Positions 4,976 to 26,538 of a stretch of 27,584 nucleotides of DNA are shown in pieces. Made by a program: the position numbers and the translations under genes. Source of the DNA: a virus (Duplodnaviria > Heunggongvirae > Uroviricota > Caudoviricetes); IMG/VR virus record IMGVR_UViG_640753024_000006, positions 1 through 27,584 of that record; one strand, given 5' to 3'. The notes below the pieces were generated by a model. That model saw only the letters and a list, made by a program, of their open reading frames with translations, made no database searches and had not been told where the DNA came from. The first letter of the stretch is position 1, and each line of letters begins with the position of its first letter.

Positions 4976-5373
4976 CTTTAAAAAGGGCGGCAGAGCAGTC
5001 ACGGAGTAAAACTGATACCGCCAAACGCCACCAGAAAATTGATAACAGAGGGCGTTGCAGCGGGGTTGTCACTTAAGCGTATGGTCAACCTGACAACCCG
5101 GTGTCCTCAACGGGGAAGGAATAACCCCGCCATACTTACCGCCGCGCCATTTCGCGGAGTGCCACAACCGGAAGCGCACGGTCGAATTAAATTTAACGAC
5201 ACCGTACAGAGAGACCAATTTCGCCGTGCGCTTTCGCGTTATGCTCTGGCTTTTCAGGGATATATCCTTTCAGTAAACTGTCAGTACCGGATTCTTATCC
5301 GTGTCCGGCGCACGACCACACGTGGCAGCGTGTTGGTCTCCATTTTTAACCCAGAACCTCAATGGAGGATAAA

Positions 5374-11751: not shown

Positions 11752-11794
11752 GCAACCATTACCCCCTGTGATGTAATTGTGGGGTAATGGTTGC
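11752..11794. repeat. Perfect 14-bp inverted repeat hairpin (gcaaccattacccc ... ggggtaatggttgc), 15-nt spacer, no flanking T-run
   Basis: Exact reverse-complementary arms at 11752-11765 and 11781-11794, between DUF4406 and the next gene. Confidence 0.75.
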
Positions 11795-11827
11795 GCAGGC
11801 ATAGCGACAGGACTGGATGAGAAAAAT

Positions 11828-12250
11828 ATGACGAAATTTACCAGAGAGCAATTGATTGCTCATGCTAATGAAAGTGTGAAATCCATGGAATTTGCTGCGC
11901 GACAGACCGTGTTTAAGACTTCAAGAGTTGCCATTGAAATGGATCTTGCGCTTGCCCGTATTGCGCTTGCCTCACTTGAAGCAATGCCAGTTGCATGGTC
12001 CTGTGCTCACAATATGGTTTTGTTCAATGCTGAATCTGTTGCGGCATACGCAAAACACTCAGCCATTGCGCCAAAACCCCTGTACGCTGCGCAACCGGCA
12101 TCACTTTCACATGAGGAAGAGTTGACAATGCTGGTTAAACAATTGGTAAGTCAGTTGAAAAAAGCGAAACCAGATTGCAAATTACCGGATATGGCGATGG
12201 GGTATCTGGAGCGGAATGGGCTGATAAGCGCGGAGGATGTTTTACGATGA
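11828..12250 (+). CDS. Hypothetical protein (141 aa)
   Basis: ATG 11828 in frame with track ORF 11777-12250; no motif recognised. Confidence 0.5.
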   Translation: MTKFTREQLIAHANESVKSMEFAARQTVFKTSRVAIEMDLALARIALASLEAMPVAWSCAHNMVLFNAESVAAYAKHSAIAPKPLYAAQPASLSHEEELTMLVKQLVSQLKKAKPDCKLPDMAMGYLERNGLISAEDVLR

Positions 12251-12330
12251 CCTGGCCGGAGGCATTCACAACGACAGGAATTGCAATGGCGGTAGCACTT
12301 GTTGTGTATTCGATTTGCCGCTGGGGATAA
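12247..12330 (+). CDS. Putative small membrane peptide (27 aa), translationally coupled
   Basis: ATG overlaps the upstream stop as ATGA; sequence MTWPEAFTTTGIAMAVALVVYSICRWG has one hydrophobic helix; below the ORF-track length threshold. Confidence 0.3.
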   Translation: MTWPEAFTTTGIAMAVALVVYSICRWG

Positions 12331-12540
12331 AAACGGTTTGCAGTGAAAGGGGAGTTAAGTAGAATTGCTGCGGGTGCTTGAGGCTATCTGTCTCAGGCAT
12401 GAACACCAAAGGCAGATAGAGAAAAGCCCCAGTTAACATTACGCGTCCTGCAAGACGCTTAACATTAATCTGAGGCCCAATCTATGTCTCACAAATGTAG
12501 GTTAGCCTCTTACGTGCCGAAAGGCAAGGAGAAGCAGGCT

Positions 12541-12696
12541 ATGAAGCAGCAAAAGGCGATGTTAATCGCCCTTATCGTCATCTGTTTAACCGTCATAGTG
12601 ACGGCACTGGTAACGAGGAAAGACCTCTGCGAGGTACGAATCCGAACCGGCCAGACGGAGGTCGCTGTCTTCACAGCTTACGAACCTGAGGAGTAA
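12541..12696 (+). CDS. hok: Hok/Gef-family type I toxin (HokD/RelF-like)
   Basis: MKQQKAMLIALIVICLTVIVTALVTRKDLCEVRIRTGQTEVAVFTAYEPEE matches the Hok-family pattern (TM helix, conserved C..R..G.EVA.F) and my memory of RelF/HokD; AGGAGA RBS; structured leader upstream. Confidence 0.8.
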   Translation: MKQQKAMLIALIVICLTVIVTALVTRKDLCEVRIRTGQTEVAVFTAYEPEE

Positions 12697-12863
12697 GAGA
12701 CCAGGCGAGGGAGAAATCCCTCGCCACCTCTGATGTGGCAGGCATCCTCAACGCACCCGCACGTAACCCGCTTCGGCGGGTTTTGTTTTTTCCTGGCATT
12801 CTGGTTTACAATTCGCACGCCAGCCTGAACAACTGGCACCTGCTGCGCCAGCAGAGACAACCG

Positions 12864-15297: not shown

Positions 15298-15322
15298 AAA
15301 CCCGCTTAAATGCGGGTTTTTT
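15298..15322 (+). terminator. tR'-like rho-independent terminator
   Basis: aacccgc-ttaaat-gcgggtt stem-loop followed by TTTTTT. Confidence 0.8.
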
Positions 15323-15395
15323 GCTTAACTCTGTGGACCTTTTTATCTGTAGTTGTAAGATATGGATATTCTTACAATTTAGGTCGGTGAGCTTA

Positions 15396-16160
15396 ATGGA
15401 AGAACAGCACGGTAATTACTTTATAAAACGAATTCAGTTGATTGGAAGGGGTGCATTTGGCTTTGTTGAACACGTTAAGGTTTACAACCTCAACAAGGGT
15501 GAATGTGGGGATTATGCTAGAAAGGTTTTAGCCCCCGAAAAACCAGAGCTTTTGGCGCAAATAGAGCAGTTTAGAAGGCGTTTTAAAAGGGAGGTCGTGT
15601 ATCAATCACATTGCGTACATAGCAATATTGTTCCTATTTATTTGTGCGATTTGTTTGCCGAGAATCCATGGTTCATTATGGATAAAGCAGAATGTGATCT
15701 TGAGCACGAAATAACGAACAACCTTCTTACAACAGATCAAAAAATTTCAATAGTGAAAATGGTATTAGATGGTGTAGCTCACATCCATGCGAAAGGCTAT
15801 TTACACAGAGATATAAAACCATTTAATGTCTTGCGATTTAGCGACGGAACATACAAGGTGTCTGATTTTGGTCTGGTAAAAGATACAAATCCCGAAGGGG
15901 ATACCACTAAATTGACCGAGATCGGTACCCGTATGGGAAGTACAAGATATATGGCTCCCGAGATTTTATATAATGCCGAGTATTCAGTTAAGACTGATGT
16001 TTATGCGGTGGGGCGGTTAATTGAGGACTTAAATTTAGATGATAAAAAAATAAAGCCTATCATAGCGAAGTGTACCAGGATGGATAAAGATGATAGATAT
16101 CAGACAATAGATGATGTGGCGTTTGATTTTGTGCATTCTTTTTTAAGGAGTGAGTCATGA
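15396..16160 (+). CDS. Eukaryotic-like (Hanks-type) Ser/Thr protein kinase, minimal kinase domain (255 aa)
   Basis: Subdomain motifs GRGAFGFV (Gly loop), ARK (Lys), HRDIKPFN (catalytic loop), DFG, MAPE (APE), DVYAVG; AT-rich; ATGA overlap with the downstream gene. Confidence 0.85.
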   Translation: MEEQHGNYFIKRIQLIGRGAFGFVEHVKVYNLNKGECGDYARKVLAPEKPELLAQIEQFRRRFKREVVYQSHCVHSNIVPIYLCDLFAENPWFIMDKAECDLEHEITNNLLTTDQKISIVKMVLDGVAHIHAKGYLHRDIKPFNVLRFSDGTYKVSDFGLVKDTNPEGDTTKLTEIGTRMGSTRYMAPEILYNAEYSVKTDVYAVGRLIEDLNLDDKKIKPIIAKCTRMDKDDRYQTIDDVAFDFVHSFLRSES

Positions 16161-16900
16161 TTCAGCTGATAGCGACTTCATCATTCTCGTATCCAAAAGA
16201 ACCAGGTAGGGTCAACGAAGATTCATTGCTTCCTCCCAAAATTGTAGGGGATGGCATCTTATTTGCCGTAGCTGATGGTGTAGGTTCATACACTGGTGCC
16301 AGTCAGGCTTCATCAATGGCAATTGCTGAACTTTCAGCATTGACAAGCTTATCTTTTGACACAGTTCCGGATGTATTTGATGAAGTTAAGCGAAAGGTTA
16401 TGTCGTTAGCTGATGTTAATGATGAGTTCGATAAAGCTGCTACTACACTTACGTTTTGTTATGTTTGTGATAGCGGAATTATTATTGGTCATATTGGTGA
16501 TTGTCGTTTGTATTGCATTGGAGAGAAGAAAGCATACCAATTGACGAAGGACGATACCAGGCATCAGATGCTAATTGATCAGAATATTTTTAAACCCAGA
16601 GATTTGAAGGATAAACCGGGCAAAAATATCTTAACGACGGCGATAGCCTCAAATGTTGATATGGAATACGACTGTGATTTTATCACATGGAAAGATTTAC
16701 CTAGTATTAACGGGGTATATCATCTGTGTATCATGTCTGATGGGGTTCATAACGTTTGGGAAAAACGCCCCAGATTTACATCAAATACGATGAGTAATAG
16801 TCAGAAGTTTTCTAATGGCATTTTGCGTCGTATAGAGAGAGCCGGACCTGATGATGACTTTTCTTTAGTAAGTATAATGGTGCGTGTGACGTCAGATTAG
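16157..16900 (+). CDS. PP2C-family (PPM) Ser/Thr protein phosphatase
   Basis: Motifs RVNEDS, FAVADGVGS (DGxG), HIGDCRLY (GDSR-like) and MSDGV; 247 aa; coupled to the kinase gene. Confidence 0.8.
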   Translation: MIQLIATSSFSYPKEPGRVNEDSLLPPKIVGDGILFAVADGVGSYTGASQASSMAIAELSALTSLSFDTVPDVFDEVKRKVMSLADVNDEFDKAATTLTFCYVCDSGIIIGHIGDCRLYCIGEKKAYQLTKDDTRHQMLIDQNIFKPRDLKDKPGKNILTTAIASNVDMEYDCDFITWKDLPSINGVYHLCIMSDGVHNVWEKRPRFTSNTMSNSQKFSNGILRRIERAGPDDDFSLVSIMVRVTSD

Positions 16901-18566: not shown

Positions 18567-18642
18567 GGCCCTTTAGCTCAGTGGTGAGAGCGAGCGACTC
18601 ATAATCGCCAGGTCGCTGGTTCAAATCCAGCAAGGGCCACCA
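18567..18642 (+). tRNA. tRNA with anticodon CAU (Ile2/lysidine type, ileX/ileZ-like, or Met)
   Basis: Cloverleaf folds by hand: 7-bp acceptor GGCCCTT/AAGGGCC, D-arm GCTC..GAGC, anticodon loop CTCATAA, T-loop GGTTCAAATCC, CCA end. Confidence 0.8.
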
Positions 18643-18643
18643 A

Positions 18644-18720
18644 CCGTCACCAGTTCATCAGGAAAGAGCGTCAACCCTTTAAGTTGAGTGTGCGAGGTTC
18701 GAGTCCCCGGTGGCGGTCCA
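18644..18720 (+). tRNA. Aberrant tRNA-like element (anticodon-loop CCTTTAA, apparent anticodon UUU with C at position 33); possibly a degenerate tRNA
   Basis: Acceptor CCGTCAC/GTGGCGG (one G-U), T-loop GGTTCGAGTCC and CCA end, but non-canonical C33 and a mismatched T-stem. Confidence 0.35.
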
Positions 18721-18722
18721 GT

Positions 18723-18798
<76 letters not shown>

Positions 18799-18801
18799 TA
18801 T

Positions 18802-18876
<75 letters not shown>

Positions 18877-25954: not shown

Positions 25955-26538
25955 TGGCATTCAGAATGAGTGAACAAGCACGGACCATAAAAATTTATAA
26001 TCTGCTGGCCGGAACTAATGAATTTATTGGTGAAGGTGACGCATATATTCCGCCTCATACAGGTCTGCCAGCAAACAGTACCGATATTGCACCACCAGAT
26101 ATTCCTGCTGGCTTTGTGGCTGTTTTCAACAGTGATGAGGCATCGTGGCATCTCGTTGAAGACCATCGGGGTAAAACGGTTTATGACGTAGCGTCAGGGG
26201 ACGAGTTATTTATTTCTGAACTCGGTCCGTTACCGGAAAATGTTACCTGGTTATCGCCGGAAGGGGAGTTTCAGAAGTGGAACGGCACAGCCTGGGTGAA
26301 GGATACGGAAGCAGAAAAACTGTTCCGGATCCGGGAGGCGGAAGAAACAAAAAACAACCTGATGCAGGTAGCCAGTGAGCATATTGCGCCGCTTCAGGAT
26401 GCTGCAGATCTGGAAATTGCAACGGAGGAAGAAACCTCATTGCTGGAAGCCTGGAAAAAGTATCGGGTGTTGCTGAACCGTGTTGATACATCAACTGCAC
26501 CTGATATTGAGTGGCCTACGAACCCTGTCAGGGAGTAA
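25954..26538 (+). CDS. tfa: Tail fibre assembly chaperone Tfa
   Basis: 194 aa; start overlaps the stf stop (TAATG); conserved Tfa C-terminal region (...[25 protein letters not shown]...). Confidence 0.85.

Follow-up and report, generated by a model that had tools for sequence, protein, structure and literature searches.

The closest described relatives of the locus examined here are hok loci of prophages, a plasmid and the Escherichia coli chromosome. Experiments have established hokW-sokW as a type I toxin-antitoxin pair that needs the sokW promoter and, in part, RNase III and Hfq (PMC8621323); this near-twin of our locus was annotated in 1999 and experimentally characterised in 2021. In plasmid R1's hok/sok system, mok and hok start at positions 116 and 174, a spacing of 58 nt that places them out of frame (PMC9841398). 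We refer to the whole 27,584-nt stretch of DNA analysed here as the window, and its sequence from about 12331 to 12792 very probably constitutes a canonical type I toxin-antitoxin module that belongs to the hokD/hokW subtype and is complete for hok, mok and sok. The host element is a lambdoid E. coli/Shigella prophage, and the module occupies its nin-equivalent region, between the replication genes and antiterminator Q, as a preliminary description of this DNA had proposed. That description set the limits of the locus at 12250-12696, which end at the hok stop codon and leave out the 3′ hairpin, fbi (12746..12758) and the terminator (12765..12792). The cassette is already known and carries the annotation hokD in thousands of E. 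coli genomes; the module was matched in 4954 of 5426 complete E. coli genomes, with coverage of at least 80% in 4021, and single genomes carry up to 11 matches to the module query. The features of the locus are as follows.

12337..12365, plus strand: hok (mok-hok) promoter, sigma-70-like, from a promoter scan; −35 TTTGCA (12337..12342), 17-nt spacer, −10 TAGAAT (12360..12365).
12372..12792, plus strand: full-length hok mRNA, about 420 nt long and by prediction translationally inert (Rfam RF01794, terminator scan, fold).
12372..12383, plus strand: tac (translational activator element), GGGUGCUUGAGG, at the mRNA 5′ end (folds, alignment).
12384..12419, plus strand: local hairpin of the tac stem-loop, holding the inverted repeat of the preliminary description (full-length and trimmed folds, Rfam structure).
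12424..12432, plus strand: ucb (upstream complementary box, or anti-SD), AAGCCCCAG (folds).
12422..12492, minus strand: putative sok antisense RNA gene, about 71 nt, with a 5′ single-stranded tail, a long hairpin and a UUUUC tail (transferred from 933W sokW).
12472..12475, plus strand: mok Shine-Dalgarno, GAGG, conserved in the window, 933W, hokC and R1-like loci and invariant in the 50-locus alignment.
12476..12498, plus strand: hypervariable patch, comprising the mok SD-to-AUG spacer and mok codons 2-5 (column entropy).
12484..12696, plus strand: mok leader ORF of 70 aa, made up of 19 leader residues and Hok and read in the hok frame (ORF list).
12499..12527, minus strand: candidate sok promoter, −35 TTGCCT (12527..12522), 17-nt spacer, −10 TAACCT (12504..12499), read from the sequence and aligned to 933W and R1-like loci.
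12505..12509, plus strand: dcb (downstream complementary box), GCCUC, pairing with the mok SD once the mRNA is active (helix 3 in the Rfam consensus structure).
12528..12531, plus strand: hok Shine-Dalgarno, GGAG within AAGGAGAAG, invariant in all five aligned loci including the R1-like ones.
12541..12696, plus strand: hok toxin gene (hokD allele), 51 aa (Pfam PF01848, PHROG 251, identity to K-12 HokD).
12704..12725, plus strand: 3′ UTR hairpin, GGCGAGGGA-GAAA-UCCCUCGCC (full-length and trimmed folds).
12746..12758, plus strand: fbi (fold-back inhibitory element), CCUCAACGCACCC, complementary to tac apart from a single bulged C (fold, motif search).
12765..12792, plus strand: intrinsic terminator of the hok mRNA, 12765..12782 plus a T run (terminator scan), common to K-12 Qin hokD.

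The identity of the toxin is clear. The 51-aa ORF covers the full 42-position model of Pfam HOK_GEF (PF01848) with an E value of 1.2e-23 and 82.9 bits against a cutoff of 22, and matches PHROG 251, 'MokW-like host killing', at 2.8e-33. The preliminary description had seen a Hok/Gef signature and a likeness to HokD/RelF in this peptide and had staked its reading on alignment to the Hok family; the peptide does align, and it is 100% identical, residue by residue, to E. coli K-12 HokD/RelF, with one RefSeq product (WP_000813254.1) common to K-12 and the nearest genome. The NCBIfam Hok models also match, with scores under their strict cutoffs, and do not help to assign the subtype. A preprint lists HokD among the toxic controls, characterised earlier, of an overexpression assay in which toxicity was seen for 42 of the 45 homologs assayed (bioRxiv 10.1101/2025.08.07.668861).

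The leader upstream of this gene is shorter than the roughly 290 nt first assigned to it. The Rfam hok leader model RF01794 matches 12372..12546 on the plus strand from end to end (model positions 1-157 of 157) with 117.7 bits against a gathering score of 59 and an E value of 1e-27, and its tac stem, Sok-complement hairpin, mok SD/dcb hairpin and hok SD hairpin are all found. Since the promoter lies at 12337..12365 and the 5′ end of the model falls at 12372, we place the mRNA start at about 12372, so that the leader measures 169 nt up to the hok ATG and 112 nt up to the mok ATG. The −10 sequence TAGAAT is retained in nearly all related loci, even those with unrelated upstream DNA. We rejected 12250..12371 as hok leader because a conserved 27-aa ORF and the hok promoter lie there and hok loci share homology only from the promoter onward; the ORF itself (12249..12330) is separate and translationally coupled. 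Weak matches to the isrK, rsmX and CsrC models and to one snoRNA model of Rfam in the 3′ UTR and leader all scored under their gathering scores and were treated as chance or hairpin-only resemblance.

The sequence elements of the published hok switch, their conservation and the two alternative predicted folds are shown here for this locus. The full-length mRNA has a predicted minimum free energy of −170.7 kcal/mol (z = −7.5 relative to shuffled sequences), and in this fold fbi, whose match is unique within the window, pairs with mRNA nt 1-12, while GCCCCAG of ucb pairs with CUGAGGC carrying the mok SD, a C/A mismatch included; the same mismatch is described for R1 (PMC9841398). In the trimmed fold it is AAGCCCC of ucb that pairs with tac. 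The predicted folds thus reproduce the published switch, tac/fbi when the molecule is full-length and tac/ucb after 3′ trimming, with the difference that the trimmed fold puts the mok SD on GUCUCA just past the AUG, not on dcb as in the Rfam/R1 model. The dcb sequence itself is conserved across the window, 933W and R1-like loci, and tac is conserved in hokC and R1-like loci. Inverted repeats thought at the outset to fit a folded hok mRNA did prove to do so in the Rfam alignment and in both folds: ggctatctg (12382..12390) and cagatagag (12413..12421) form the first hairpin of the mRNA. The hairpin at 12704..12725 probably acts as the 3′ end protector of the processed, active mRNA; the stem-loop in the equivalent position of R1 is one whose stability matters for the processed mRNA (PMC9841398).

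Conservation was followed in an alignment of 50 HokD-type loci. The tac element is invariant in 50/50, in loci that had been chosen on a tac motif; all 12 tac/fbi pairs are kept in 50/50, and fbi is kept even where the DNA further downstream differs. In the 3′ hairpin 99% of cells are paired, and in the hairpin at 12384..12419 one pair shows a compensatory change from A-U to G-C in 4 loci. Overall, 96.5% of cells are paired, compared with about 40% when the partners are slid, and only 5 pairs changed on both sides. Covariation support is thin because the 50 related loci are too similar (96% mean identity), and the result is consistent with pairing rather than decisive; the Rfam score carries the weight.

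The coordinates of the putative antisense gene were carried over, without indels, from the annotated sokW of 933W. The predicted Sok RNA folds at −30.7 kcal/mol (z = −5.9) into a hairpin flanked by a 5′ tail and a U tail, and its sequence complements ucb as well as the mok SD and AUG. The promoter hexamers and their spacing are identical to those of 933W/Sp5 sokW, a promoter validated by mutation (PMC8621323), and the position agrees with TTGCGC-17-TATCCT of R1-like loci; across the 50 loci the −35 does not vary and the −10 hardly does. A strict consensus promoter scan of the window did not report the sok promoter, because TAACCT fits the consensus at only 3/6 positions. Judged by its hexamers, the R1-like Sok promoter would fail the same scan. 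As far as sequence can tell, the locus therefore has an apparent antisense Sok with its promoter inside mok and with complementarity to the mok initiation region. The tac, fbi and sok promoter elements, for which the preliminary description had recommended aligning the leader to known loci, are all present.

By homology to R1 hok/sok and Sp5 hokW-sokW, the window locus would be transcribed, processed and toxic in its own context, and we propose the following mechanism. A stable mRNA of ~420 nt would be made from ~12372, in which tac pairs with fbi and ucb sequesters the mok SD, a form that would be neither translated nor bound by Sok. Slow 3′ trimming to the hairpin at 12704..12725 would take off fbi and let tac move to ucb, and the tac/ucb pairing would expose the mok Shine-Dalgarno and AUG. 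Ribosomes translating mok would then cross the hok start region and enable hok translation; since mok is in frame here, they would also make, we propose, a 70-aa extended Hok. The unstable Sok of ~71 nt, from the opposite strand, would pair over ucb, the mok SD and the mok AUG, blocking mok translation and triggering cleavage by RNase III. Should sok transcription stop, because the element is lost or the prophage induced, Hok would enter the inner membrane and kill or lyse the cell. Such a module might serve to maintain the prophage, to help phage release or to exclude phages.

A locus that is complete need not be active, since some intact chromosomal hok loci mediate no post-segregational killing, a finding of Pedersen and Gerdes 1999 given here as summarised in bioRxiv 10.1101/2025.08.07.668861. 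It is conceivable, then, that the window locus is structurally intact and functionally silent, a decaying chromosomal or prophage copy like hokA/B/C/E of K-12 that no longer kills. In earlier work summarised in that preprint, chromosomal hokA, hokB and hokC could not mediate post-segregational killing or respond to rifampicin, and the up to 11 query matches per E. coli genome could relax selection on single copies. However, no regulatory element is missing and all match those of the functional hokW-sokW; the locus has no IS element or truncation, unlike K-12 hokC, whose 3′ flank departs from the window right behind the stop codon, and K-12 hokD, truncated beside relE; and in 50 distinct loci little or no variation is seen in the hok CDS, tac, ucb, mok ATG, sok −35 and fbi. 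We consider silence unlikely.

The relative frame of mok and hok calls for separate discussion. The upstream ATG at 12484 does lie in the hok frame, as first reported: it is 57 nt upstream of the hok ATG (12541), through which the mok ORF reads, and it is invariant in 50/50 loci. The arrangement had been called unusual, a description that does not hold for the HokC/HokD-like branch, where 933W and hokC have mok in frame and our surveys find it so in most loci. Among prophage loci encoding exactly the window Hok, mok is in frame in 67/81. In species-representative genomes it is in frame in 37/58 scored loci, counts that are approximate since the survey was a regular expression (GAGG, 3-11 nt, ATG or GTG, 40-75 nt upstream of the hok ATG) that failed on 16/74 loci and may have mis-called divergent ones. 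Most R1-like loci share the out-of-frame spacing of 58 nt, and the window, with 57 nt in frame, departs from that R1-type layout (58 nt, +1 offset). Spacings of 56, 57, 58, 59 and 60 nt all occur, however, and relative frame is not a defining feature of the family; the 58-nt layout distinguishes sub-lineages and is not a criterion of membership. Nor can we retain the earlier suggestion of a variant regulatory layout, the layout being that of annotated mokW/hokW in 933W and of K-12 hokC.

These frame counts are also what speaks for a stronger proposal, namely that in-frame mok is a distinct regulatory or coding variant whose 70-aa Mok-Hok fusion is functional or a second toxin, with the frame under selection; if mok is translated, the sequence does entail a 70-aa product containing all of Hok. 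Yet one and the same Hok protein is found with spacings of 56, 57 and 58 nt, that is, in all three relative frames, and the 56-nt lineage yields just a 19-aa peptide whose UGA stop overlaps the hok AUG. Mok codons 2-5 are moreover the most variable part of the locus, so the Mok peptide is not conserved, and in R1 it is translation of mok up to the hok start that counts, not the Mok product (PMC9841398). We regard selection for the fusion as very improbable.

There is practically no probability left for the reading of the locus as a sok-less relic like Qin hokD (relF) of K-12, expressed only via read-through from upstream genes, which the preliminary description had entertained: the identical Hok and the about 98% identity of 3′ UTR, fbi and terminator to the K-12 copy would suit it, but the K-12 homology (query 197-460) begins only at window position 12527, the window keeps the sok promoter as well as tac, ucb, the mok start, the Sok RNA region (collinear with annotated sokW, hairpin and terminator included) and the sok −10, the last five missing beside relE in K-12, and it has a complete leader matched by the full Rfam model and no relBE.

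Within the complete canonical module that we prefer, the variation among related loci is concentrated around the mok start. The patch at 12476..12498 has a column entropy of 0.77 to 0.88 bit, compared with 0.02 to 0.30 elsewhere in the locus. It overlaps the site that the 5′ tail of Sok is predicted to target, as well as a small hairpin that surrounds the mok AUG. Most changes in it preserve base pairing through G-U or one-sided changes, and its indels switch the mok frame. We tentatively suggest that the patch may be under diversifying selection, each co-resident prophage copy of hok/sok answering only to its own Sok; frequent indels would then leave the mok frame evolutionarily free, and in-frame copies would yield the 70-aa extended Hok as a by-product. 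Variation placed at the Sok-tail target thus offers a testable idea, insulation among multiple co-resident copies.

As a discovery the locus has little weight, both the cassette and its near-twin hokW-sokW being already known. Its interest is that this prophage copy shows the intact form of the truncated Qin hokD (relF) locus of K-12, and that, in-frame mok being the majority layout in HokC/HokD-like lineages, out-of-frame R1 is unfit as a yardstick of what is normal.

Comparison with the known loci places the window locus as follows. Plasmid R1 hok/sok (parB) has all the named elements, arranged as in the window locus (tac, ucb, mok SD, mok, dcb, hok SD, hok, 3′ hairpin, fbi, terminator), and likewise an antisense sok read from a promoter inside mok. 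Its Hok is only 43% identical to that of the window, and tac/fbi differ in a compensatory manner, GGCGC/GCGCC in R1-like loci and GGGUGC/GCACCC in the window; R1 is plasmid-borne, with a proven role in post-segregational killing. The hokC/mokC (gef) locus of K-12, chromosomal and not in a prophage, has the 57-nt in-frame mok (69 aa and 50 aa), the tac sequence GGGTGCTTGAGGC and the element order of the window, with 82% identity between the Hok proteins. Its second leader hairpin is shorter by ~18 nt, and its 3′ flank departs from the window straight after the stop codon, with no fbi that aligns.

The two remaining loci are those of prophages. Qin hokD (relF) of K-12 encodes the identical 51-aa protein, is ~98% identical to the window from the hok SD to the terminator, 3′ hairpin and fbi included, and has the same downstream neighbours (a small ORF, the DUF968 protein YdfU and Q). 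It has no promoter, tac, ucb, mok start or sok, and relBE abuts the hok SD, whereas in the window the 5′ half is intact and relBE is absent. The hokW/mokW/sokW locus of Shiga-toxin phage 933W and Sakai prophage Sp5 (AF125520; PMC8621323) shares 92.5% DNA identity with the window over 438 nt, with no indels through the leader, the sok region included; its tac, ucb, mok SD, dcb, hok SD and fbi are those of the window, and so are the hexamers of the sok promoter. It differs in the Hok C-terminus (FTAYEPEE in the window, FVDYESEK in HokW), in Mok residues 2-4 (SHK in the window, LNT in MokW) with the corresponding part of the Sok 5′ tail, and in the K-12-type terminator after fbi, which the window has and 933W does not. 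Like the window locus, it lies in a lambdoid prophage, where the annotated mokW (70 aa) and hokW (51 aa) have the same 57-nt in-frame spacing and end at one common stop codon.

The window carries a complete hok locus of a well-known family, and a near-twin has already been characterised. Pfam HOK_GEF aligns along its entire length with the 51-aa product of the locus (E 1.2e-23, 82.9 bits against a cutoff of 22). The product also matches PHROG 251, 'MokW-like host killing' (E 2.8e-33), and is 100% identical, residue for residue, to the K-12 Qin prophage protein HokD (RelF), bearing out the Hok-type, HokD/RelF-like assignment made in the preliminary description. The closest genome shows 99.6% identity across a 470-nt query, with the identical protein accession given there by RefSeq, and the module was found in 4954 of 5426 complete E. 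coli genomes. Genes 5' of the locus encode an HTH replication protein, a DnaC/IstB-like ATPase, DUF1627, DUF977 and DUF4406, while those 3' encode DUF968, RusA and antiterminator Q. Since replication genes lie upstream and RusA and antiterminator Q downstream, the earlier placement of the ORF in the 'nin region' of a lambdoid prophage is right.

Elements of the hok locus (tac, ucb, dcb and fbi are pairing elements of hok mRNA; SD, Shine-Dalgarno)
12337..12365, + strand: hok promoter, sigma-70-like, TTTGCA-17-TAGAAT (promoter scan)
12372..12383, + strand: tac, GGGUGCUUGAGG
12424..12432, + strand: ucb, AAGCCCCAG
12472..12475, + strand: mok SD, GAGG
12484, + strand: mok AUG, opening a 70-aa ORF in the same frame as hok (ORF listing)
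12505..12509, + strand: dcb, GCCUC
12528..12531, + strand: hok SD, GGAG
12541..12696, + strand: hok toxin ORF, 51 aa, AUG at 12541 (ORF listing)
12704..12725, + strand: strong 3' hairpin (fold prediction)
12746..12758, + strand: fbi, CCUCAACGCACCC (= CCTCAACGCACCC) (fold prediction)
12765..12792, + strand: intrinsic terminator (terminator scan)
12492 to 12422, − strand: predicted sok antisense gene (transferred from the annotated sokW of 933W)
12527..12522 and 12504..12499, − strand: predicted sok promoter, TTGCCT and TAACCT with a 17-nt spacer (read from sequence and alignment)

The Rfam hok leader family RF01794, which carries the name 'sok' and is matched here on the hok mRNA strand, aligns over its full model length (117.7 bits, gathering score 59, E 1e-27), starting at 12372, exactly 7 nt past the promoter, and ending at the hok AUG. 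Promoter and RF01794 start therefore define a leader that reaches the mok AUG after 112 nt and the hok AUG after 169 nt, in place of the roughly 290 nt originally proposed; the first 80 nt of that longer stretch (12249..12330) are a separate 27-aa ORF. In a comparison of 80 related prophage loci (IMG/VR loci encoding the same HokD-type Hok), homology extends from the hok promoter onwards, and the sequence 5' of it is mosaic. Past the hok stop codon, the 3' hairpin, fbi and terminator all fall outside the interval first assigned to the locus (12250-12696). The ORF, the inverted repeat and the in-frame ATG of the preliminary description are thus real, but its leader extent and locus boundaries are wrong. 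The Salmonella prophage sRNA IsrK gives a weak Rfam match, below threshold, at 12705..12786 (+ strand; 27.9 bits, gathering score 50, E 0.0015); this match spans the hairpin of the hok 3' UTR and the terminator, and is probably a mere two-hairpin resemblance.

Every named element of the hok paradigm is present in canonical order and conserved in alignment with 933W hokW, K-12 hokC and an IncFII R1-like hok. The repeat ggctatctg (12382..12390) and cagatagag (12413..12421) is, by Rfam alignment and folds, the first hairpin of hok mRNA. For the full-length RNA (12372..12790), the lowest-energy fold (−170.7 kcal/mol, z = −7.5) joins tac (nt 1-12) to fbi, and GCCCCAG (ucb) to CUGAGGC (mok SD) with one C/A mismatch, the same mismatch as in R1 hok mRNA (PMC9841398). 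When the RNA is cut past the 3' hairpin (12372..12726), the predicted fold changes to tac/ucb pairing. These predicted folds agree with the published hok switch, and tac/ucb refolding is the published activation mechanism. The fbi pattern has only one match in the 27.6-kb window, the 12 tac/fbi pairs are unbroken in every one of 50 distinct related loci, and fbi persists even where the sequence beyond it changes. R1-like loci differ from the window by a compensatory change in tac/fbi (GGCGC/GCGCC versus GGGUGC/GCACCC). The second leader hairpin (12433..12468, + strand), which is complementary to the Sok hairpin, contains an inner GCGUC/GACGC stem. In length it exceeds its counterpart in hokC and R1-like loci by about 18 nt and the Rfam consensus by about 16 nt; a short, unrelated version occurs in 3 of the 50 related loci.

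The locus of phage 933W (AF125520), in which mokW, hokW and sokW are annotated, is 92.5% identical to that of the window over 438 nt. The leader alignment contains no indels, and sokW therefore maps to 12492 to 12422. Both hexamers and the 17-nt spacer of the sok promoter are identical in 933W, and the R1-like promoter (TTGCGC-17-TATCCT) is equivalent in position. The predicted Sok RNA begins with a single-stranded tail at its 5' end, continues into a long hairpin and closes with a UUUUC tail (−30.7 kcal/mol, z = −5.9). Its sequence is antisense to ucb, the mok SD and the mok AUG. By sequence, then, the antitoxin gene sok is present in the window. The suggestion of a sok-less relic suits only K-12 Qin hokD, in which homology to the window starts at 12527, at the hok SD, directly after relE.

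The in-frame upstream ATG had been considered unusual, a view that fits R1, where the mok ATG at 116 and the hok ATG at 174 are 58 nt apart and hence in different frames (PMC9841398), but the 57-nt in-frame layout is common elsewhere. MokW and HokW of 933W (70 and 51 aa) share one stop codon by annotation, and K-12 hokC (69 and 50 aa) and an IncFII plasmid with a Hok identical to the R1 Hok query are likewise in frame. Among 81 loci with this exact Hok (the window and 80 IMG/VR loci), the spacing is 57 nt in 67 and 56 nt in 11, and three have no mok start; the 56-nt lineage has a 19-aa mok ORF whose UGA overlaps the hok AUG. A cross-species survey of 58 loci, taking in only species-representative loci with a heuristically found mok start, gave 37 in frame (Escherichia, Shigella, Photorhabdus, Pantoea, Citrobacter and Sodalis among them), 16 at 58 nt and five at 56 or 59 nt, with 58 nt predominating in the R1-like clade. 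One co-resident HokD copy is at 58 nt, so the same toxin occurs with all three relative frames. This freedom agrees with the established finding that it is the translating of mok, and not its peptide product, that counts (PMC9841398).

Across 50 distinct HokD-type mRNAs, chosen by identical Hok (which lowers CDS variation) and by the tac motif, little or no variation is seen in tac, ucb, the mok ATG, the sok −35, the hok SD, the hok CDS and fbi. Variation peaks at 12476..12498 (+ strand), comprising the mok SD-to-AUG spacer and mok codons 2-5, where column entropy is 0.77 to 0.88 bit, compared with 0.02 to 0.30 elsewhere. This segment is predicted to pair with the Sok 5' tail and to form a small hairpin at the mok AUG; many of its changes keep pairing, and its indels are the source of the mok frame switches. 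Co-resident copies mostly differ here (3/3 in one E. coli, 3/3 in one S. flexneri and 1/2 IMG/VR genome pairs, an anecdotal sample), which may be compatible with insulation from each other's Sok.

The Hok Tyr47 codon, TAC followed by G (CTTACGAA, 12679..12682, + strand), is invariant in the 50 loci. A preprint reports Tyr-to-Cys recoding of hokB by TadA A-to-I editing, and similarly for hokC, hokD and hokE (bioRxiv 10.1101/2025.08.07.668861); by sequence, the Tyr47 codon looks like a site of this editing context. Hok loci the same or almost the same as the E. coli type also occur, mostly on short contigs, in assemblies labelled Veillonella parvula (a metagenome-assembled genome), Acinetobacter idrijaensis, Xanthomonas pisi and Streptomyces morookaense, most likely as contaminating E. 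coli, phage or plasmid DNA.

Several other features of the prophage were observed. The 27-aa ORF (12249..12330, + strand; MTWPEAFTTTGIAMAVALVVYSICRWG) is hydrophobic, has an ATGA overlap with the stop of a 157-aa ORF (11777..12250) and occurs, with variants, in about 18 of the 80 related loci. It has no match in Pfam, NCBIfam or PHROG; its differences from the commonest variant are mostly synonymous (about seven, with two non-synonymous, by the analyst's count), suggesting that it encodes a genuine small membrane protein missed by annotation. A DicF antisense sRNA gene lies at 4985..5036 (− strand; Rfam 76.4 bits, gathering score 48), and the immunity region of a closely related prophage has a neighbourhood of the dicB/ydfA/ydfC type. 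Directly after antiterminator Q, 15321..16900 (+ strand) encodes moron-like cargo, namely a Ser/Thr protein kinase of eukaryote-like type (Pkinase, E 2.8e-33) and then a PP2C phosphatase (E 2.1e-14), a pair also annotated in a related genome. Four tRNA genes (Met-CAT, Lys-TTT, Thr-TGT and Gly-TCC; all four found by ARAGORN, three by Rfam) cluster 3' of Q at 18567..18876 (+ strand), and 26297..26495 (+ strand) strongly matches the Rfam family IS009 (225.2 bits, gathering score 117).

Taken together, the reading as a Hok locus stands, but the locus is already known and is neither unusual in layout nor sok-less. Judged by homology, the module most likely works like those of plasmid R1 and Sakai prophage Sp5. 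Full-length mRNA would be made in an inert form and lose fbi by slow 3' trimming, and the trimmed RNA would refold; mok translation would then permit that of hok, except where Sok base-pairs with the mRNA and the duplex is cut by RNase III. Decay of Sok would lead to membrane damage by Hok. For the nearest characterised relative, experiments established hokW-sokW as a type I toxin-antitoxin pair, with a toxic HokW located in the inner membrane and protection that needs the sokW promoter and, in part, RNase III and Hfq; after mitomycin C, the locus about doubles the release of Sp5 phage (PMC8621323).
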